Shown: positions 2,313-10,919 of the stretch, piece after piece | Layout: the number at the start of each line of letters is the position of its first letter | Position numbering within the stretch: the first letter of the stretch is position 1 | From: a virus | Taxonomy: Duplodnaviria; Heunggongvirae; Uroviricota; Caudoviricetes | Length of the DNA stretch: 10,919 nucleotides | IMG/VR virus record: IMGVR_UViG_2558860161_000005 | Strand: one strand, 5' to 3' | Program-made: the position numbers and the translations under genes | The notes under the pieces: generated by a model | What the model was told of the DNA's origin: nothing | The model's input: only the letters and a program-made list of their open reading frames with translations | Database searches by the model: none

Positions 2313-2321
2313 CGTCTCCCA
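2313..2321. repeat. Right copy of the 9-bp IS1 target-site duplication (cgtctccca)
   Basis: Identical to 1536-1544. Confidence 0.9.
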
Positions 2322-2436
2322 TTGCGTAATGTGTATCCTTCTTTTCTGATATCGCTGAATATCGCCCGTTTGTCAGACTTATCGAACCAGAACATGCGGC
2401 TGCCACAGCACATATCAAGAATGGTTGCCGGTGCAC

Positions 2437-2859
2437 TCACTGCGCCACGTCCTGAAAATTACCCTGATAGAAAGCCAGTATGCGCTGCATAACTTCGCTC
2501 TTCCGGCACTCGCGACAGATTATGTTTAGGCGACTGTCGTAGCGACGTATTTCTCCGTCAGGTGATGACCAGATAAGGTCCGGATCAACCACAGCAGGTT
2601 TCTTCACCTTTGCCCTCGAGAGTTTTTTGCGGGCGTTTTGCCAGTCCTTACGCGCCTGTTCAGAGGGGAATAACCCGTAGCCGGAGTTGTATACATCGCC
2701 ACTGGCTACCAGCTCTCTGGCAAGAACGCTCATCAGATATCTAGTCGCACCTGTTTTAGCTTCCAGTTGCCGTAACGTCTCACGGCCGCTCTGGCGCACG
2801 AGTTCCACCACCTGCCATTTAATTTTTTCCCGCTCTTCTTGTGTAAAAACTTTTGCCAC
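2437..2859 (-). CDS. Hypothetical 140-aa prophage early protein, basic, possible DNA-binding; function unknown
   Basis: ORF with GTG start at 2859-2857 preceded by GGGGG SD; translation MAKVFTQEEREKIKWQVVELVRQSGRETLRQLEAKTGATRYLMSVLARELV... It lies between the replication initiator and the methyltransferase, and its stop overlaps the alternative GTG start of the methyltransferase. Confidence 0.55.
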   Translation of the reverse strand: MAKVFTQEEREKIKWQVVELVRQSGRETLRQLEAKTGATRYLMSVLARELVASGDVYNSGYGLFPSEQARKDWQNARKKLSRAKVKKPAVVDPDLIWSSPDGEIRRYDSRLNIICRECRKSEVMQRILAFYQGNFQDVAQ

Positions 2860-2899: not shown

Positions 2900-3865
2900 T
2901 TATCCTCTGAAACCAGGCGGAATTTCTGTATCCGGTTCAGAAATATGATTAACACAACGCTGTACAGGTGAACGTCCCAGGCGGATGACCAGTTCGTCCC
3001 ATTTTTCGCGGAGCTTTGACGGGCTCATGATGTTTTTTACCCAGAATGGATCTCGCTGAACCCGACCAAACATTTCGCAAATTTGTCTGTGGCTTCTGCC
3101 ATCCAGCATCCGCATTGTGCGCACGTCATTGGCCCAGGCAGTCCAGTTAGGCTCTTTTGGTCGCATGATCTCGCCATCATCACTGGCTGCCTGTTCGTAG
3201 AGACCCACGATCCGCCCCCAGATCCACTGCGCACACGCCAAATCCTCCCTGCTACCCCACTGGCGTTTTTTCGCACTAAACACAACCGCGTCGGAGTTCC
3301 GGGTTAAAGAATCCTGTTCAGTCGTCTGCGGGTCCGGTTGCGAAGCTTCCGGACGAAAAGTGTTTTTATTCTCTGTAGTAATCTCTGTTGTATTCTCTGT
3401 AAGATCATCAGGCCATTTTGACCCGATGACATTGGGTCGTTTTGAACCAATGGAGCGTTTCATTTTGACCTCTTCCATCGTGTCATTTTGACCTGATGGA
3501 GCGGCGCATTTTGAACCGATGGATTCGCTCAATTTGCCACCATCTAAAAGCTCGCTCCCATAGTTGATCGTGTAGAAATTGGTCATATCGCGCTTTGATT
3601 TATTGAGCTTTTCACAACGCAAAAGCCCCAGCGTTTTCAGACTTGCAAACGCGCGCTTTAACGTTGACTCTGACCAGAATGGGAACTGTTCCAGCCATTG
3701 TTCCGTTGTGTTATAAATCCAGCGAACACCATCACATTCCATGCCGGAGTTGGTATCTCTCAACCAGTAGTGCAGTTGTTGCAAAACAATGGCTTCGTTT
3801 AAGCCAATTTTCATTGCCAGCTGCGTGTTTATAACCAGTGGGCGTTCAGCAAAAAGAAGGCTCAT
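2900..3865 (-). CDS. Phage replication initiator (lambda O-like role), about 322 aa from ATG 3865; contains the origin iterons
   Basis: Track ORF 2900..3919 begins at a TTG; the likely start is ATG 3865-3863 (MSLLFAERPLVINTQLAMKIGLNEAIVLQQLHYWL...), typical of a phage replication-initiator N-terminus. The central region is coded by iteron DNA (SIGSK repeats) and an AT-rich repeat (TENTTEITTEN). Family assignment is from memory. Confidence 0.7.
   Translation of the reverse strand: MSLLFAERPLVINTQLAMKIGLNEAIVLQQLHYWLRDTNSGMECDGVRWIYNTTEQWLEQFPFWSESTLKRAFASLKTLGLLRCEKLNKSKRDMTNFYTINYGSELLDGGKLSESIGSKCAAPSGQNDTMEEVKMKRSIGSKRPNVIGSKWPDDLTENTTEITTENKNTFRPEASQPDPQTTEQDSLTRNSDAVVFSAKKRQWGSREDLACAQWIWGRIVGLYEQAASDDGEIMRPKEPNWTAWANDVRTMRMLDGRSHRQICEMFGRVQRDPFWVKNIMSPSKLREKWDELVIRLGRSPVQRCVNHISEPDTEIPPGFRG
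3355..3541. other. Putative lambda-style replication origin: 5-6 iterons with a 23-24 bp period (3414-3541) plus an adjacent AT-rich tract with three attctctgt-like repeats (about 3355-3400), inside the initiator gene
   Basis: Direct repeats with core ttttga(a/c)c at 3416, 3440, 3463, 3486, 3509 and a degenerate copy near 3532, each followed by (c/t)gatgg-like sequence; ccatc/gatgg dyads flank the cores. The arrangement parallels ori-lambda within gene O. Confidence 0.6.
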
Positions 3866-4367
3866 AATTCCATCCAGCTTTTTGTTGGTATTGCTGTCGA
3901 TACGCAAGCTTGAAAGCAATTGCTTTTTCTATAAGTTCGTCAGTTTCACGATCCACTACGGCAGGATCAGCAAAAAGCAGTCCGGACTCCACCACATCGC
4001 CATATTCTTTGTTTAACCCGGCGATCATGCACGTGATGCTTTTTCCGTCAGTAATTTCACGATACAACCTGAAATCACTAATCCGGATAGCCTCCATAAT
4101 CGCAGGCACTAGCGCCGTGAACTTTTCACGCTTATCCCTGGTGTCGATAGCCTTCCAGCGTTCGAATATCTTCACTCGATTAACACCAAGCGCTCGCTGA
4201 TCAACCGCGCCACCTTCATCTGTGACACGCTGAACATCGATGTTCGGGCGCTCTTTCAAAGCCCAGAATGCTTCAGTGATTAATATCGTCGCCTGCTCCT
4301 GTGTCATTCCTGGTCGACATATCCAGGCATCCAGAGCCTCACGAACCTGTTCAGGAGTGATTTTCAT
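3846..4367 (-). CDS. 173-aa early-operon protein in the cII/YdaT position; possibly a YdaT-like regulator
   Basis: ATG at 4367-4365; translation MKITPEQVREALDAWICRPGMTQEQATILITEAFWALKERPN...; overlaps the dicC stop by 17 nt and the initiator start by 20 nt, suggesting translational coupling. Family assignment is tentative. Confidence 0.6.
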   Translation of the reverse strand: MKITPEQVREALDAWICRPGMTQEQATILITEAFWALKERPNIDVQRVTDEGGAVDQRALGVNRVKIFERWKAIDTRDKREKFTALVPAIMEAIRISDFRLYREITDGKSITCMIAGLNKEYGDVVESGLLFADPAVVDRETDELIEKAIAFKLAYRQQYQQKAGWNYEPSFC

Positions 4368-4581
4368 TGTTCAACCACCCCGCCCGCTTCGTCTTACGAT
4401 ATTCATCATAAACTTTGGGATCATACTGAAGCTCCCCGCCAGATGCCTCCTGTAGACGCATCGCGCGACCTTCGGGAACTAAATCCCCTTTCCAGCTATA
4501 AAGCGAAGCCAAACGAATACCTGCTGCTTGTGCAAGTTTTGTTTTTGAACCGAAATACAAAAGAGCGTCAGTTTTAAGCAT
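4351..4581 (-). CDS. dicC: DicC, Cro-like regulator of the Qin-type immunity region (76 aa)
   Basis: ATG at 4581-4579 with SD AGGTG 7 nt upstream; translation MLKTDALLYFGSKTKLAQAAGIRLASLYSWKGDLVPEGRAMRLQEASGGELQYDPKVYDEYRKTKRAGWLNNENHS; the 76-aa length and divergent arrangement with dicA match E. coli Qin dicC as I recall it. Confidence 0.85.
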   Translation of the reverse strand: MLKTDALLYFGSKTKLAQAAGIRLASLYSWKGDLVPEGRAMRLQEASGGELQYDPKVYDEYRKTKRAGWLNNENHS

Positions 4582-4595
4582 TTAAAACACCTTTA

Positions 4596-4662
4596 TTGTT
4601 AGTCATAACTAACAAGATAGATGTTAACAAAAACATAGTCAATACGATTTAGCATTAGCTAA
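4596..4662. promoter_or_regulatory. dicC-dicA divergent promoter/operator region with two palindromic putative DicA operators
   Basis: Perfect palindrome ttgttagt-cata-actaacaa at 4596-4615 and imperfect palindrome ttagc-atta-gctaa at 4649-4662, immediately upstream of the dicA ATG (4665). Confidence 0.55.
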
Positions 4663-4664
4663 CT

Positions 4665-5072
4665 ATGGAAACAAAAAATTTAACTATCGGCGAACGCATC
4701 AGGTATCGTCGGAAAAACCTCAAACACACCCAAAGGTCTCTTGCTAAAGCCCTGAAAATCTCCCATGTGTCTGTATCACAATGGGAACGGGGTGATAGTG
4801 AACCTACAGGGAAGAACCTTTTTGCCCTCAGCAAAGTATTGCAATGCTCACCAACATGGATTCTATTTGGCGATGAAGACAAGCAACCAACACCACCTGT
4901 TGAGAAGCCAGTTGCCTTATCCCCCAAAGAACTAGAGCTCCTTGAGCTGTTTAATGCACTGCCAGAATCAGAACAGGATACCCAGCTCGCCGAAATGCGA
5001 GCTCGAGTAAAAAACTTCAATAAACTCTTTGAAGAATTACTAAAAGCCCGTCAGCGGACAAATAAAAGATAA
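4665..5072 (+). CDS. dicA: DicA, HTH (XRE-family) repressor of the dicB operon (135 aa)
   Basis: ATG at 4665, stop TAA at 5070-5072; translation METKNLTIGERIRYRRKNLKHTQRSLAKALKISHVSVSQWERGDSEP... matches E. coli DicA as I recall it (135 aa). Confidence 0.9.
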   Translation: METKNLTIGERIRYRRKNLKHTQRSLAKALKISHVSVSQWERGDSEPTGKNLFALSKVLQCSPTWILFGDEDKQPTPPVEKPVALSPKELELLELFNALPESEQDTQLAEMRARVKNFNKLFEELLKARQRTNKR

Positions 5073-5106
5073 CATCATCAATGAGTTATCTTTTACCACA
5101 TCAATT

Positions 5107-5161
5107 ATGTTAGCTATAGCATACAAAATCACTTGACCGATATGTTAGTCATGGCTAATCT
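5107..5161 (+). promoter_or_regulatory. Putative dicB-operon promoter overlapped by DicA operator-like sites
   Basis: -35 TTGACC at 5133-5138, 17-nt spacer, -10 TAATCT at 5156-5161. Operator-like atgttagctatagcatacaa at 5107-5126 (palindromic core gctatagc) and ttagtcatggctaa at 5145-5158, sharing the TGTTAG half-site with the intergenic operators. Confidence 0.5.
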
Positions 5162-5238
5162 TGTTTGCATCAACACACCGCACGGTGTTCTCAGCAAACA
5201 GTTCCGCTACCCCAGCGTTAAGGGGAAATGAGGTCCGC

Positions 5239-5394
5239 ATGGATACTATCGATCTTGGCAACAACGAATCTCTGGTGTACGGCGTGTTTCCAAACCAGGA
5301 CGGTACGTTCACCGCGATGACGTATACCAAAAGCAAAACGTTTAAAACCGAAAATGGTGCCCGTCGCTGGCTGGAAAGAAACTCAGGTGAGTGA
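5239..5394 (+). CDS. ydfA: YdfA (51 aa), dicB-operon small protein of unknown function
   Basis: ATG at 5239 with SD GAGG 7 nt upstream; translation MDTIDLGNNESLVYGVFPNQDGTFTAMTYTKSKTFKTENGARRWLERNSGE. The track ORF 5161..5394 is the same frame extended to an upstream alternative start. Confidence 0.8.
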   Translation: MDTIDLGNNESLVYGVFPNQDGTFTAMTYTKSKTFKTENGARRWLERNSGE

Positions 5395-5395
5395 T

Positions 5396-5524
5396 ATGGA
5401 TTTCGACACAATCATGGAAAAAGCTTACGAAGAATACTTCGAAGGTCTTGCCGACGGCGAAGAAGCTCTCAGCTTCAACGAATTTAAACAGGCGCTTTCC
5501 AGTTCGGCAAAATCTAACGGCTGA
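5396..5524 (+). CDS. ydfB: YdfB (42 aa), dicB-operon small acidic protein
   Basis: ATG at 5396, one base after the ydfA stop; translation MDFDTIMEKAYEEYFEGLADGEEALSFNEFKQALSSSAKSNG, stop TGA at 5522-5524. Below the track threshold; found manually. Confidence 0.7.
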   Translation: MDFDTIMEKAYEEYFEGLADGEEALSFNEFKQALSSSAKSNG

Positions 5525-5553
5525 TAAGCGAAACAGCACCGCGAGGAATCAGT

Positions 5554-5772
5554 ATGCAGAAACGAGAACCCGTCATCATCGCGCCAGACTATACCGATGA
5601 TGAACTTTATGAGTGGATGCGCCAGAAAATTAATGCAGCGCAGGATCTGAAATGGGCCAATGAAGCCAGGGCTAAGCAGGCTGAAAATCTGTCCGCTCTG
5701 GAGCAGGATATCACCAATCTGGAAAAAGCAGCGGCATTAAGCATTGCCAGAATGATTACATACCCGCGTTAA
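5554..5772 (+). CDS. ydfC: YdfC (72 aa), dicB-operon protein of unknown function
   Basis: ATG at 5554 with SD GAGG (5543-5546); translation MQKREPVIIAPDYTDDELYEWMRQKINAAQDLKWANEARAKQAENLSALEQDITNLEKAAALSIARMITYPR. Confidence 0.8.
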   Translation: MQKREPVIIAPDYTDDELYEWMRQKINAAQDLKWANEARAKQAENLSALEQDITNLEKAAALSIARMITYPR

Positions 5773-6112
5773 TAGCTAACCAACGAAGCTAAGGTTGGTA
5801 ATTAAGGAGTTCTCCACGGGTGAGGTGGAGTGCGTGCGCCGGACACGGGTGAGCATCCGGCACTGACAGTTTACTGAAAGGATATTTCCCTGAAAAGTCA
5901 GACCATAACGCGAAAGCGCACGGCGAGGTAGCTGGTTCATAGATAGCCTGTCGTTAAATTTTCGTCGACCGTGCGCTTCCGGTTGTGGCAACCCGCGAAA
6001 TGGTGCGGCGGTAAGTATGGCGGGGTTATTTCTTCCCCGTTGAGGACACCGGGTTGTCAGGTTGACCATACGCTTAAGTGACAACCCCGCTGCAACGCCC
6101 TCTGTTATCAAT

Positions 6113-6170
6113 TTTCTGGTGACGTTTGGCGGTATCAGTTTTACTCCGTGACTGCTCTGCCGCCCTTTTT
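6113..6170 (+). ncRNA. dicF: DicF small RNA (53-nt core 6113-6165 plus U-tail), antisense inhibitor of ftsZ translation processed from the dicB-operon transcript
   Basis: Sequence tttctggtgacgtttggcggtatcagttttactccgtgactgctctgccgccc followed by ttttt matches DicF as I recall it; it lies between ydfC and dicB as in Qin. Exact ends are approximate. Confidence 0.8.
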
Positions 6171-6339
6171 AAAGTGAATTTTGTGATGTGGTGAATGCGG
6201 CTGAGCGCACGCGGAACAGTTAAAACCAAAAACAGTGTTATGGGTGGATTCTCTGTATCCGGCGTTAATTGTTAACTGGTTAACGTCACCTGGAGGTACC
6301 AGGCACTGCATCACAAAATTCATTGTTGAGGACGCGATA

Positions 6340-6528
6340 ATGAAAACGTTATTACCAAACGTTAATACGTCTGAAGGTTGTTTTGAAATTGGTGTCACTA
6401 TCAGTAACCCAGTATTTACTGAAGATGCCATTAACAAGAGAAAACAAGAACGGGAGCTATTAAATAAAATATGCATTGTTTCAATGCTGGCTCGTTTACG
6501 TCTGATGCCAAAAGGATGTGCACAATGA
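6340..6528 (+). CDS. dicB: DicB (62 aa), MinC-dependent cell-division inhibitor
   Basis: ATG at 6340 with SD GAGG (6327-6330); translation MKTLLPNVNTSEGCFEIGVTISNPVFTEDAINKRKQERELLNKICIVSMLARLRLMPKGCAQ. The track ORF 6235..6528 carries a spurious N-terminal extension. Confidence 0.85.
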   Translation: MKTLLPNVNTSEGCFEIGVTISNPVFTEDAINKRKQERELLNKICIVSMLARLRLMPKGCAQ

Positions 6529-6716
6529 ATTCAGCATTTGTGCTTGTTCTGACAGTTTTTCTTGTTTCCGGAGAGCCAGTTGATATTGCAGTCAGTGTTC
6601 ACAGGACAATGCAGGAGTGTATGACTGCAGCAACCGAACAGAAAATTCCCGGTAACTGTTACCCGGTCGATAAAGTTATTCACCAGGATAATATCGAAAT
6701 CCCGGCAGGTCTTTAA
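6525..6716 (+). CDS. ydfD: YdfD (63 aa), small membrane protein reported to cause lysis when overexpressed
   Basis: ATG at 6525 overlaps the dicB stop (ATGA); SD AGGA 9 nt upstream; translation MNSAFVLVLTVFLVSGEPVDIAVSVHRTMQECMTAATEQKIPGNCYPVDKVIHQDNIEIPAGL with a hydrophobic N-terminus. Confidence 0.8.
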   Translation: MNSAFVLVLTVFLVSGEPVDIAVSVHRTMQECMTAATEQKIPGNCYPVDKVIHQDNIEIPAGL

Positions 6717-6808: not shown

Positions 6809-9280
6809 ATGAGTAAAGTCTTTATTTGCGCCGCTATTCCTGACGAACTGGCAACAAGGGAAGAAGGCGCTGTGGCTGTAGCCACAGCCATTGAAGCTGG
6901 CGACGAACGCCGTGCTCGAGCAAAATTTCACTGGCAATTCCTGGAACATTATCCGGCTGCTCAGGACTGCGCTTATAAATTTATTGTCTGCGAGGATAAA
7001 CCTGGCATACCCCGCCCTGCCCTCGATTCATGGGATGCTGAATATATGCAGGAAAACCGCTGGGATGAGGAGTCTGCTTCTTTTGTCCCGGTTGAGACTG
7101 AATCCGATCCGATGAACGTCACTTTTGACAAGCTGGCCCCTGAAGTACAGAACGCTGTCATGGTTAAGTTCGACACATGTGAAAACATCACCGTTGATAT
7201 GGTTATTAGCGCACAGGAATTGTTGCAGGAAGACATGGCAACATTCGACGGACATATCGTTGAAGCGTTGATGAAAATGCCAGAAGTTAACGCCATGTAT
7301 CCGGAGCTTAAGTTGCACGCCATTGGGTGGGTTAAGCATAAATGTATTCCTGGTGCTAAATGGCCCGAAATTCAGGCAGAGATGCGCATCTGGAAAAAAC
7401 GTCGCGAAGGTGAACGCAAGGAAACCGGAAAATACACGTCTGTTGTTGATCTCGCCCGCGCCAGAGCCAATCAACAGTACACTGAAAATTCAACAGGAAA
7501 AATCAGCCCGGTCATTGCTGCCATTCATCGCGAATACAAGCAGACATGGAAAACACTGGATGACGAACTGGCCTACGCTCTCTGGCCTGGTGATGTGGAT
7601 GCCGGAAACATTGACGGCAGCATCCATCGCCGGGCAAAAAATGAAGTTATCGACAACGACCGCGAAGACTGGAAGCGTATCTCGGCATCAATGCGCAAAC
7701 AGCCTGATGCCCTTCGCTACGACCGCCAAACTATTTTTGGCCTTGTCCGTGAGCGTCCGATCGACATTCACAAAGATCCCGTAGCACTGAACAAATATAT
7801 CTGCGAATACCTGACGACAAAGGGCGTGTTTGAGAATGAAGAAACAGACCTGGGCACTGTTGATGTTCTCCAGTCATCAGAAACACAAACTGATGCAGTG
7901 GAAACTGAGGTATCTGATATCCCAAAAAATGAAACCGCGCCGGAAGCTGAACCATCTGTAGAGCGTGAGGGGCCGTTCTATTTCCTCTTCGCAGATAAGG
8001 ACGGAGAAAAATACGGTCGCGCAAACAAACTTTCTGGTCTGGATAAGGCACTGGCTGCTGGCGCCACTGAAATCACAAAAGAAGAATATTTTGCCCGAAA
8101 AAATGGCACATACACGGGCTTACCGCAAAATGTAGATACCGCTGAAGATTCAGAACAACCAGAGCCGATAAAAGTTACCGCTGACGAAGTAAACAAAATT
8201 ATGCAGGCAGCCAATATCATCCAGCCTGACGCCGATAAGTTGCTTGCTGCATCACGTGGTGAATTTGTTGAAGGGATTAGTGACCCGAATGATCCGAAAT
8301 GGGTTAAGGGGATCCAGACCCGCGATTCTGTGAACCAGAACCAGCATGAATCGGAACGGAACTACCAAAAAGCGGAACAAAACAGCCCAAATGCGTTACA
8401 AAACGAGCCAGAAACGAAACAGCCTGAATCAGTGGCGCAACAGGAAGTGGAAAAAGTCTGCACCGCCTGCGGTCAGACCGGCGGCGGCAACTGCCCTGAT
8501 TGTGGCGCGGTAATGGGCGACGCAACATACCAGGAAACATTCGATGAAGAGTATCAGGTTGAAGTTCAGGAAGATGATCCGGAGGAAATGGAAGGCGCTG
8601 AACATCCACACAAGGAGAACACTGGCGGCAATCAGCATCACGATAGCGATAATGAAACTGGCGAGACGGCAGATCACTCAATTAAGGTGAACGGTCATCA
8701 AGAAATCACATCCACCAGCAGGACGTGTGACCATCTAATGATCGACCTTGAAACCATGGGAAAAAATCCTGATGCCCCGATCATCTCAATAGGTGCAATA
8801 TTTTTCGATCCGCAAACCGGAGATATGGGACCGGAATTTAGTAAGACTATCGATCTGGAAACTGCTGGCGGAGTCATTGATCGGGACACCATTAAATGGT
8901 GGCTTAAGCAATCACGCGAAGCGCAATCTGCCATTATGACCGATGAAATCCCGTTAGATGATGCACTGTTACAATTGCGGGAATTTATCGACGAAAACTC
9001 CGGTGAATTTTTTGTTCAGGTCTGGGGAAATGGAGCCAACTTCGACAACACGATTTTGCGCCGTTCATACGAACGGCAGGGGATCCCCTGCCCGTGGCGT
9101 TACTACAACGATCGCGATGTACGCACAATCGTTGAGCTGGGGAAAGCCATAGACTTCGATGCCAGAACGGCTATTCCATTCGAAGGTGAGCGCCATAATG
9201 CACTTGATGACGCCCGTTACCAGGCAAAATACGTTTCAGTTATCTGGCAAAAACTGATCCCGAGTCAGGCTGATTCTTAA
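6809..9280 (+). CDS. Full-length YdfE-like protein (about 823 aa): N-terminal domain of unknown function, acidic linker with a Cys4 zinc ribbon, C-terminal DnaQ-like DEDDh 3'-5' exonuclease domain
   Basis: Likely start ATG 6809 (SD GAGG 6797-6800); the track ORF begins at TTG 6773, and ATG 6794 is an alternative. Exonuclease motifs: D-L-E from 8744, WGNGANFD, HNALDDARY. Zinc ribbon CTACGQTGGGNCPDCG at about 8459-8506. The N-terminus MSKVFICAAIPDELATREEG... is what I recall for the K-12 ydfE pseudogene product, which is truncated there. Confidence 0.8.
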   Translation: MSKVFICAAIPDELATREEGAVAVATAIEAGDERRARAKFHWQFLEHYPAAQDCAYKFIVCEDKPGIPRPALDSWDAEYMQENRWDEESASFVPVETESDPMNVTFDKLAPEVQNAVMVKFDTCENITVDMVISAQELLQEDMATFDGHIVEALMKMPEVNAMYPELKLHAIGWVKHKCIPGAKWPEIQAEMRIWKKRREGERKETGKYTSVVDLARARANQQYTENSTGKISPVIAAIHREYKQTWKTLDDELAYALWPGDVDAGNIDGSIHRRAKNEVIDNDREDWKRISASMRKQPDALRYDRQTIFGLVRERPIDIHKDPVALNKYICEYLTTKGVFENEETDLGTVDVLQSSETQTDAVETEVSDIPKNETAPEAEPSVEREGPFYFLFADKDGEKYGRANKLSGLDKALAAGATEITKEEYFARKNGTYTGLPQNVDTAEDSEQPEPIKVTADEVNKIMQAANIIQPDADKLLAASRGEFVEGISDPNDPKWVKGIQTRDSVNQNQHESERNYQKAEQNSPNALQNEPETKQPESVAQQEVEKVCTACGQTGGGNCPDCGAVMGDATYQETFDEEYQVEVQEDDPEEMEGAEHPHKENTGGNQHHDSDNETGETADHSIKVNGHQEITSTSRTCDHLMIDLETMGKNPDAPIISIGAIFFDPQTGDMGPEFSKTIDLETAGGVIDRDTIKWWLKQSREAQSAIMTDEIPLDDALLQLREFIDENSGEFFVQVWGNGANFDNTILRRSYERQGIPCPWRYYNDRDVRTIVELGKAIDFDARTAIPFEGERHNALDDARYQAKYVSVIWQKLIPSQADS

Positions 9281-9352: not shown

Positions 9353-9604
9353 ATGAGCGAAGTAATCATGATTGTCTCTCCCGGCAAATGGGTATCCGAA
9401 GAGCAGTTAATTGCGCTGAAAGGAATAAAAAAAGGTACGTTAAAAAAGGCCCGGGAAAAATCGTTTATGGAAGGAAGGGAATATAAGCATGTCGCTCATG
9501 ACGGTATGCCATGGGATAACAGTCCATGCTTTTACAACCTGGAAGAAATTGATCGCTGGATTGAGCGCCAGGCATCAGCAAGACCAAGACGTCATCTTAC
9601 TTGA
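9353..9604 (+). CDS. Excisionase-like small DNA-binding protein (83 aa), immediately upstream of int
   Basis: ORF MSEVIMIVSPGKWVSEEQLIALKGIKKGTLKKAREKSFMEGREYKHVAHDGMPWDNSPCFYNLEEIDRWIERQASARPRRHLT; basic; position and size typical of a lambdoid xis; an alternative start is ATG 9368. Confidence 0.65.
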   Translation: MSEVIMIVSPGKWVSEEQLIALKGIKKGTLKKAREKSFMEGREYKHVAHDGMPWDNSPCFYNLEEIDRWIERQASARPRRHLT

Positions 9605-9623: not shown

Positions 9624-10919
9624 ATGAGAGAAGTTGAAATGAAATATCCGACAGGCGTGGAAAACCATGGAGGGAAATTACGTATCTGGTTTGTTTATAA
9701 AGGCGTAAGAGTCAGGGAAAACCTGGGGGTTCCTGACACAGCAAAAAACAGGCGCGTTGCAGGTGAGCTACGCGCCTCTGTTTGTTACGCAATAAAAACT
9801 GGTGTTTTCGACTATGCAAAACAGTTTCCCTCCTCACGCAATCTGGAAAAATTTGGTGAGACTCGACAAGATTTAACCATAAAAGAACTGGCTGAAAAAT
9901 TTCTGGCACTGAAAGAAACTGAAGTCGCAAAAACATCACTCAACACATACCGTGCCGTCATCAAAAATATCCTGAGCATAATCGGTGAAAAAAATCTTGC
10001 CTCATCGATTAATAAAGAAAAATTACTGGAGGTTCGTAAAGAGCTACTGACTGGATACCAGATCCCCAAAAGTAACTATATTGTTACACAACCAGGGAGA
10101 TCGGCTGTAACTGTAAATAATTACATGACAAATCTTAACGCCGTGTTCCAGTTTGGTGTTGATAACGGTTACCTGGCAGATAACCCGTTTAAGGGGATCT
10201 CGCCATTAAAGGAATCAAGAACCATTCCGGATCCTCTTTCGCGGGAGGAATTCATCCGTCTTATCGATGCGTGCAGAAATCAGCAAGCCAAAAATTTATG
10301 GTGTGTTTCTGTTTATACTGGCGTTCGCCCTGGTGAGCTGTGTGCACTTGGATGGGAGGACATAGATCTGAAAAATGGAACAATGATGATCAGGAGAAAT
10401 TTAGCAAAAGACCGTTTCACGGTACCAAAAACACAGGCGGGAACCAATCGGGTCATTCATCTTATTAAGCCAGCAATCGACGCTCTCCGGAGTCAGATGA
10501 CATTAACGAGACTGAGCAAAGAGCATATCATTGATGTTCACCTCAGAGAGTATGGCAGAACAGAAAAACATAAATGCACCTTTGTTTTTCAACCTGAAGT
10601 GTCAGCGAGAGTAAAAAATTATGGTGACCATTTTACCGTTGACTCAATAAGGCAGATGTGGGACGCAGCGATAAAACGTGCCGGACTCCGCCATCGAAAA
10701 TCATATCAGTCGAGACATACTTATGCCTGCTGGTCGCTGACAGCTGGTGCTAATCCGGCATTTATAGCAAACCAGATGGGCCATGCAGATGCGCAAATGG
10801 TATTTCAGGTATACGGAAAATGGATGTCTGAAAACAATAATGCACAGGTAGCTTTGTTAAATACACAGTTAAGCGAGTTTGCCCCAACCATGCCCCATAA
10901 CGAAGCAATGAAAAATTAA
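9624..10919 (+). CDS. Phage tyrosine integrase (lambda-Int family); probable counterpart of Qin intQ, here apparently intact
   Basis: 431-aa ORF from ATG 9624 (the second ATG at 9639 has the better SD). N-terminal arm-type DNA-binding-like region; C-terminal catalytic region with SRHTYACW (His-x-x-Arg) and a C-terminal Tyr in GHADAQMVFQVYGKW. The stop TAA is the last three bases of the window. Confidence 0.85.
   Translation: MREVEMKYPTGVENHGGKLRIWFVYKGVRVRENLGVPDTAKNRRVAGELRASVCYAIKTGVFDYAKQFPSSRNLEKFGETRQDLTIKELAEKFLALKETEVAKTSLNTYRAVIKNILSIIGEKNLASSINKEKLLEVRKELLTGYQIPKSNYIVTQPGRSAVTVNNYMTNLNAVFQFGVDNGYLADNPFKGISPLKESRTIPDPLSREEFIRLIDACRNQQAKNLWCVSVYTGVRPGELCALGWEDIDLKNGTMMIRRNLAKDRFTVPKTQAGTNRVIHLIKPAIDALRSQMTLTRLSKEHIIDVHLREYGRTEKHKCTFVFQPEVSARVKNYGDHFTVDSIRQMWDAAIKRAGLRHRKSYQSRHTYACWSLTAGANPAFIANQMGHADAQMVFQVYGKWMSENNNAQVALLNTQLSEFAPTMPHNEAMKN

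Follow-up and report, generated by a model that had tools for sequence, protein, structure and literature searches.

Tight gene junctions in the early operons of a Qin/CP-933O-like prophage of Escherichia coli: geometry, conservation and plausible translational coupling

The 10,919 bp of the IMG/VR virus record IMGVR_UViG_2558860161_000005 analysed here (hereafter the window) match E. coli chromosomes with 100% identity and hold the early region, with two divergent operons, of a lambdoid E. coli prophage of the Qin/CP-933O-like kind. Five pairs of neighbouring genes in these operons overlap or are one base apart, which raises the question of translational coupling, that is, of whether translation of the downstream gene depends on that of its upstream neighbour. 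Our reading is that these are ordinary compact phage-operon junctions, where the pairs with a 4-nucleotide (nt) overlap or a 1-nt gap are probably coupled and the downstream genes at the long overlaps are most likely initiated mainly de novo. The geometry of the junctions, the start sites and their conservation are established, as is, from the literature, the co-transcription of ydfABC-dicFB-ydfD; what we infer is that coupling occurs, and how strong it is at one junction as compared with another.

The leftward operon, which is PR-like, has the order dicC-ydaT (CII-like)-O-DUF977-methyltransferase, and the rightward one, which is PL-like, the order ydfABC-dicF-dicB-ydfD. The gene names of this Qin/CP-933O-like prophage come from the annotation by the NCBI Prokaryotic Genome Annotation Pipeline (PGAP) of DNA identical to the window, and the gene identities agree with those obtained in Pfam and PHROG scans; a scan with NCBIfam gave no matches for the O-like protein and the small proteins. 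The genes which form the five junctions are listed below, with lengths in amino acids (aa) and, where relevant, the pairing energy of the Shine-Dalgarno sequence (SD).

4351-4581, minus strand: dicC, 76 aa, Cro-like repressor (Pfam P22_Cro, 44.1 bits; PGAP name dicC)
3846-4367, minus strand: ydaT-family CII-like regulator, 173 aa (PF06254, 24 bits for a cut-off of 21; phrog_163, E 1.2e-40)
2900-3865, minus strand: replication initiation O-like gene, 321 aa, ATG at 3865 (phrog_391, E 5.6e-91)
2437-2859, minus strand: DUF977 gene, 140 aa, GTG start (Pfam PF06163, 101.5 bits; SD -11.2 kcal/mol)
2313-2440, minus strand: 5' fragment of the methyltransferase gene, truncated by IS1
5239-5394, plus strand: ydfA, 51 aa, DUF1391, the gene with which the dicBF operon begins (PF07151, 98.5 bits)
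5396-5524, plus strand: ydfB, 42 aa (phrog_2061, E 3.8e-27; PGAP name ydfB)
6340-6528, plus strand: dicB, 62 aa, cell-division inhibitor (PF05358, 136.8 bits, full length)
6525-6716, plus strand: ydfD, 63 aa, DUF1482, lysis protein (PF07358, 91.1 bits; function in PMC8835842)

Spacing is given in nt from the upstream stop to the downstream start, negative values being overlaps and positive values gaps. On the plus strand, dicB and ydfD have the ATGA at 6525-6528 in common (spacing -4), and the TGA stop of ydfA (5392-5394) is separated from the ATG of ydfB (5396-5398) by the single base 5395, in the arrangement TGAtATG (+1). On the minus strand, dicC and ydaT overlap by 17 nt (4351-4367), ydaT and the O-like gene by 20 nt (3846-3865), and the stop of the DUF977 gene is combined with the GTG of the methyltransferase at 2440 in the GTGA at 2437-2440 (-4). 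All five pairs are adjacent and co-directional, and the leftward genes are presumably co-transcribed, judging from gene order. The first-pass annotation of the window had described these five junctions exactly as they stand in the sequence, and PGAP gives the same coordinates, on identical DNA, for every gene except the methyltransferase. The region in which it had placed them (4351-6716) holds three, the 20-nt overlap and the GTGA falling outside, and its statement that such overlaps occur throughout both operons goes too far: of the 11 same-strand junctions of the window, five are tight (-20, -17, -4, -4 and +1), the remaining six having gaps of +29, +34, +40, +72, +92 and +567. This share is typical for such a phage: mEp460_ev081, which is related, has overlaps in 14 of its 44 same-strand pairs, 11 of them at -8, -4 or -1, and the only longer overlaps are a -29 and the -17 and -20 found at the same two junctions as in the window.

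The conservation of the junctions was followed in relatives, the counts being of fetched loci; as some contigs were fetched repeatedly, not all of these loci are independent, and it is safer to go by how many distinct junction sequences there are. The scans of viral contigs (with DicB, YdaT and a YdaT alignment) returned almost only relatives of 94-100% identity, giving allele counts with little depth, and a scan of a genome collection with a DicB alignment gave 7 loci, the family being narrow. The word-indexed protein search with YdaT returned mostly fragments and frameshift chimeras, the informative proteins being P0063, P0066 and P0067. Among the Escherichia relatives, start sites that remove the overlaps were not found.

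The shortest junctions keep their spacing. The dicB and ydfD genes are at -4 in all 151 fetched loci carrying both, with 10 distinct junction sequences, and diverged pairs (61-67% and 45-48% identity, respectively) are still at -4, with CGGAGAACAGCAGTGAC or CGGAGAGCGTCAATGAC instead of AAAAGGATGTGCACAATGA and with either GTGA or ATGA; in Citrobacter (69% and 55% identity) the spacing is +1, as TAAgATG. Moreover, ydfA and ydfB are at +1 in 115 of 115 loci, and the DUF977 gene keeps its -4 GTGA also when followed by a non-homologous gene (L008). The looser gaps are maintained as well, the +40 from the O-like gene to the DUF977 gene being kept in relatives and the +29 from ydfB to ydfC, which is not tight, being present in 65 of 65 loci.

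The long overlaps behave in a different manner. That of dicC and ydaT is -17 in nearly all Escherichia loci, with dicC alleles of 68-100% identity, and -29 in two loci (L112 and one other) where the dicC stop has changed from TGA to CGA and DicC is four residues longer, a direct example of overlap growth. In loci with the Rac-type ydaT (30% identity), the spacing is -17 with two other cro-like alleles and -4 with a third (71 aa), and in the Raoultella and Citrobacter loci the cro-like gene and ydaT are at -4. The overlap between ydaT and the O-like gene is -20 in 125 of the 126 fetched Qin-type loci, the exception being a partial tblastn match and not a different start; the spacing from ydaT to the replication gene is -29 in phage PPompW, where the replication gene is non-homologous, and +28 or +29 in the Citrobacter and Raoultella relatives. 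The -4 and +1 junctions are held within -4 to +1 while the sequence is rewritten, whereas the long overlaps are labile in length or lost.

Taken as mere coincidences of sequence, the five junctions could well arise by chance. Of the stop triplets anywhere in the window, 24-25% have a start codon at -20 to +1 that opens 40 codons or more, and about 10% have one at exactly -4. What does go beyond chance is that each start is backed by homology as the start of a conserved gene, and that relatives show the arrangement again.

The relation between spacing and coupling has been studied with reporters. According to a review (Brown & Wade 2025, PMC12548453), the efficiency of coupling is highest at spacings from -4 to +3 nt, added overlap lowers it more than added spacing, with none left at -25 in one systematic series, and -4 is by far the commonest prokaryotic spacing, up to a third of genes overlapping. 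Furthermore, a spacing of -8 to +10 has been taken as predictive of termination-reinitiation, about 20 nt of added distance nearly abolishing it, and every native -4 or -1 pair tested in E. coli and Haloferax proved to be coupled, with strong distance dependence (Huber et al. 2023, PMC10666635). Three of the junctions (dicB/ydfD, DUF977/methyltransferase and ydfA/ydfB) lie within -8 to +10, and two (dicC/ydaT at -17 and ydaT/O-like at -20) lie outside. Coupling thus seems plausible at the three -4/+1 junctions and doubtful at the -17 and -20 ones, where the published distance dependence argues for mainly independent initiation.

The likeness to the known termination-reinitiation systems with spacings of -4 or -1 (Huber et al. 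2019, 2023; Brown & Wade 2025) extends to the form of the junctions, the co-directional pairs of the window being likewise joined by NTGA or 1 nt apart, and to the position of the SD, which in the -4/+1 pairs likewise lies inside the upstream open reading frame (ORF) with a spacing within -8 to +10. Unlike those systems, the window also has overlaps of 17 and 20 nt, outside the efficient range, and the coupling of its pairs is a prediction. A further comparison is offered by genes VII and IX of phage f1, small phage genes likewise joined at -4, and by the ribosome-scanning model of Adhin & van Duin, as these are cited in PMC12548453 and PMC10666635, translation of the second gene being proposed to depend on that of the first. 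Coupling of the f1 pair depends on the unfolding of a hairpin masking the downstream start, and a consistent masking structure is not predicted in the window. Gene overlaps are also enriched among pairs encoding heteromeric complexes; the window pairs are not known as such, and DicB and YdfD are functionally antagonistic and not known as partners.

In the proposed mechanism, the one best supported by analogy with the native -4/-1 pairs tested in the literature, a ribosome ending the upstream ORF at a -4 or +1 junction would sit at or next to the downstream start and would re-initiate there or hand over, assisted by a moderate SD within the last codons of the upstream gene, 5-9 nt before the start, so that the output of the downstream protein would be tied to that of its upstream neighbour. 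In the dicC/ydaT and ydaT/O pairs, the downstream genes would mainly start de novo at their own SD, and the long overlap would be a tolerated by-product of where the upstream stop happens to fall. For one pair, dicB/ydfD, whose overlap is mentioned in PMC8835842, a benefit is plausible. Since both genes are carried on one transcript, the 1,608-nt ydfABC-dicFB-ydfD RNA reported in K-12 (PMC10448788), and co-expression of DicB prevents YdfD-induced lysis (PMC8835842, PMC11430063), coupling would keep YdfD from being made without DicB.

Several observations weigh against this reading. Experiments on the coupling of any of these pairs were not found in the literature searched, and the ribosome-profiling literature searched for ydfB gave no mention of this gene. 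The SDs of the five downstream starts (-3.9 to -7.6 kcal/mol) are as strong as those of uncoupled genes of the window, and because each start has its own SD, independent initiation is possible at all five. Predicted accessibility of the ribosome-binding site (RBS) is 0.30-0.53 at the tight junctions and 0.34-0.57 at the other starts, which is no clear difference, and consistently low RBS accessibility was not found in the diverged dicB/ydfD pairs; as predicted accessibility does not separate tight from loose junctions, a route to coupling through RNA unfolding gets no support. Finally, the -17 spacing recurs in Rac-type loci whose YdaT is 30% identical, more conservation than a mere by-product predicts.

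Part of this evidence suits a rival explanation, to which we assign a smaller but real share of the probability: pure compaction, with a gene-dense phage genome in which NTGA arises easily, the downstream genes being translated independently and the spacing having no regulatory consequence. The presence, at every downstream start, of an SD in the energy range given above, like that of uncoupled starts, is in its favour, together with the fact that about a third of the same-strand pairs overlap in a related phage, that a conserved RBS-occluding structure was not found, and that junction lengths shift in relatives (from -4 to +1, from -17 to -29 or -4, and from -20 to +28). What counts against compaction is the uniform outcome for the native -4/-1 pairs tested in E. 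coli and Haloferax, all of them coupled (PMC10666635), as well as the finding that dicB and ydfD stay within -4 to +1 in all the fetched relatives carrying both genes, with a rewritten junction sequence. On balance, coupling at the -4/+1 junctions remains the preferred reading.

A second alternative concerns only the dicC/ydaT overlap, which could be held in place by a third function at the DNA level, a YdaT operator together with an activator-dependent, PRE-like promoter running antisense through dicC towards dicA, as in CP-933P and, by analogy, in lambda. The YdaT protein of CP-933P has its binding site, TTGATT-N6-AATCAA, where ydaS and ydaT meet, and from it activates a promoter at that border (PMC9986795, PMC8630535). 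The ydaS-ydaT region of CP-933P/Rac is organised like the window, a Cro-like gene coming first, a member of the YdaT family directly after it and a replication gene third, and in the fetched Rac-type loci the cro-like/ydaT junction is at -17 or -4, the former like that of the window; the two YdaT proteins are about 30% identical and differ in length (173 aa in the window and 141 aa in the Rac type). Such a function would explain why the same -17 is found in Qin- and Rac-type prophages despite this low identity. The 17 nt would then tentatively be triple-coded, as the DicC C-terminus, as the YdaT N-terminus with its RBS, and as a putative YdaT operator and PRE-like promoter. We think it unlikely that this explanation applies; it would in any case be compatible with coupling at the short junctions and de novo initiation at the long ones.

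Part of the sequence evidence fits such an operator, and a substantial part speaks against it. Of the 15 Rac-type loci (for example L070), 5 have the exact CP-933P motif across the ydaT start codon (TTGATTcATGaaAATCAA, -7 to +11), and the window has a match at the homologous position (4357-4374), within the dicC/ydaT overlap, of only 9 out of 12 positions. That match is not significant alone, as the window contains 6 matches with 3 mismatches where 9.9 are expected, and Qin-type YdaT may differ in DNA specificity. A scan of the plus strand there found no sigma-70-like promoter, though one that depends on an activator would be expected to go undetected in it; the repeats around the junction are no more than chance would give; and the overlap segment is no more conserved than its flanks (divergence of 0.05 as compared with 0.01-0.06). 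The existence of the -29 stop-loss variant and of the -4 variants also argues against a fixed operator.

The start sites were checked independently of the overlaps, because an overlap depends on the start chosen. In a chimera-free alignment of ydaT products, homologues with 31-43% identity all share M1, I3, E6, A11, W15 and G20, which fixes the start at 4367 and excludes M21, with which there would be no overlap. On the O-like protein, the alignments of other replication PHROG profiles begin at residues 2-11, before M18, the next ATG in frame. The methyltransferase made from the GTG is matched by homologues from 240 phage records, whose alignments begin at its residues 5-7; no start of the ORF other than GTG 2440 (SD of -5.0 kcal/mol) therefore retains the conserved N-terminus, and the in-frame ATGs M10 and M16 would cut the conserved S-adenosylmethionine (SAM) motif ILDMCCGS; the annotators of PhiR42_1 use the -4 GTG start, with the GTGA junction annotated. 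The ydfB start has the SD AGGTGA 5 nt upstream, and neither its ATG (5396) nor the ydfA stop, a single base away, varies across alleles, the upstream in-frame ATG at 5354 having no SD and being CTG in 5 alleles. Finally, ydfD has the SD AAGGA (-6.3 kcal/mol), its match to the DUF1482 profile sets in at residue 4, and the start is placed identically in homologues with 45-55% identity.

This evidence leaves next to no room for the view that the overlaps are annotation artefacts, with true starts either downstream, namely M21 of ydaT (4307), M18 of the O-like gene (3814) and M10 or M16 of the methyltransferase, or upstream, namely the ATGs at 5354 for ydfB and 6471 for ydfD, and junctions that are not real at the protein level: that PGAP calls the methyltransferase a pseudogene starting 45 nt further in, at M16, is a pseudogene convention, and the 12 extra N-terminal positions of the phrog_2061 profile, the longer ydfB of some phage records and the 94-aa dicB called by the mEp460 annotators stand against alternative starts that have no usable SD (+1.2 to -3.1 kcal/mol) or one that is 13 nt away. 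Misannotated starts were therefore rejected as an explanation, on SD, homology and allele evidence.

The gene identifications and start sites proposed at first pass were thus right, homology, SD strength and allele comparison rejecting the alternatives, and the overlaps proved to be conserved among Escherichia. Besides the notion of overlaps throughout both operons, the part that did not hold is the use of overlaps as independent support for the small-gene calls, which is weak given that 10-25% of stop triplets have such a start by chance. Far better support comes from the Pfam and PHROG families, from intact ORFs and from the ratio of nonsynonymous to synonymous polymorphism (pN/pS), which in the annotated frame is 0.13 for ydfA, 0.16 for ydfB, 0.33 for ydfC and 0.21 for dicB, in each case lower than in the other two frames (8.6 and 1.5 for ydfA). 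Among E. coli alleles ydfD is under weak constraint, with a pN/pS of 0.58 and equal variation at the three codon positions; its ORF is intact in 200 of 202 full-length copies, two loci (L040 and L018) having premature stops.

The remaining features of the window are the following.

1545-2312: IS1, within the SAM-dependent methyltransferase gene
4665-5072, plus strand: dicA, 135 aa, CI/C2-like repressor, divergent from dicC (PGAP; role in PMC10448788)
5554-5772, plus strand: ydfC, 72 aa (phrog_1744, E 1.6e-39)
6114-6165, plus strand: DicF small RNA, between ydfC and dicB (Rfam RF00039, 76.7 bits for a gathering score of 48)
6809-9280, plus strand: 3'-5' exonuclease
9353-9604, plus strand: xis
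9639-10919, plus strand: int

With DicF between ydfC and dicB, and the genes for DicB, YdfA and YdfD downstream of that for DicA, the rightward operon is of the Qin dicBF type, and the 173-aa protein belongs to the YdaT family by PF06254 and PHROG 163, the label of phrog_163 being 'CII-like transcriptional activator'. YdaT has been described as a CII equivalent (PMC8630535, PMC9986795). The same module is found in live phages, namely mEp460_ev081, PhiR42_1, HannyBb, Tritos and PPompW phages. The Qin cryptic prophage of E. coli K-12 has the same genes in the same order (dicC, dicA, ydfA, ydfB, ydfC, DicF, dicB, ydfD), and PGAP uses the K-12 names for them on the DNA identical to the window. The window differs from it in its largely intact leftward operon (ydaT, O-like and DUF977 genes), its full-length ydfE-like exonuclease, xis and int, and its IS1-interrupted methyltransferase; the K-12 counterparts of the leftward operon, the ydfE exonuclease, xis and int we take to be decayed or truncated. 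The IS1 element has 768 bp (1545-2312) and is flanked by a 9-bp target duplication, CGTCTCCCA, at 1536-1544 and 2313-2321, the breakpoints having been set by comparison with an IS1-free locus (L002); in IS1-free relatives, PGAP already calls the methyltransferase a frameshifted pseudogene.

Some further observations were made around the repressor genes and DicF. The dicA start codon has no SD (4645-4667, best pairing +0.3 kcal/mol), a feature that recalls lambda, where PRM gives rise to a leaderless cI mRNA. Divergence among relatives places a mosaic boundary within dicC (4480-4625), the 5' two-thirds of the gene diverging by 9-23% and part of the operator region by 9-15%, and the last third of dicC with all of ydaT by 1-7%; dicA alleles of about 57% identity adjoin near-identical ydaT genes. 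This pattern looks like immunity-region swapping with a join within dicC. Between ydfC and DicF there is a gene-free spacer of 341 nt (5773-6113), with strong predicted structure (z-score of -2.64 when folded with DicF, 5773-6170), which fits the reported processing of the DicF precursor through RNase III and RNase E (PMC10448788), and the same position holds extra genes in other phages. Just upstream of dicB (6235-6339), its frame stays open for 97 codons in all, as far as a GTG at 6235 that lacks an SD.

Genes are packed just as tightly in other division-inhibitor modules, with kilR and ydaE overlapping by 1 nt in Raoultella (L165, 362-753) and the order DicB, DUF1482, YdaE with gaps of 1 and 11 nt in Citrobacter (L168, 496-1050). 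Two records carry unexpected taxonomic labels: the module is present, with a DicB of 95% and a YdaT of 98% identity, in a metagenome-assembled genome labelled Veillonella parvula (L172, JAGZPX010000007.1), and a YdaT fragment of 97% identity (P0057) carries the name Rhodococcus qingshengii. In both cases the label looks like the result of contamination or of an error in binning.

The gene junctions of the window are ordinary and already known, as the genes, their order and their coordinates are those of the standard RefSeq annotation and overlaps of this kind are the commonest type of prokaryotic junction. The value of the analysis lies mostly in annotation quality: the start sites of ten prophage genes are confirmed, GTG 2440 is shown to be the sole methyltransferase start compatible with the conserved SAM motif, and the small genes are backed by selection and family evidence and not by their overlaps. 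If dicB and ydfD were shown to be coupled, this would explain in a simple way why production of the lysis protein occurs only alongside that of the division inhibitor counteracting it, and in matching amounts, and would be a modest addition to the knowledge of this toxic prophage operon.

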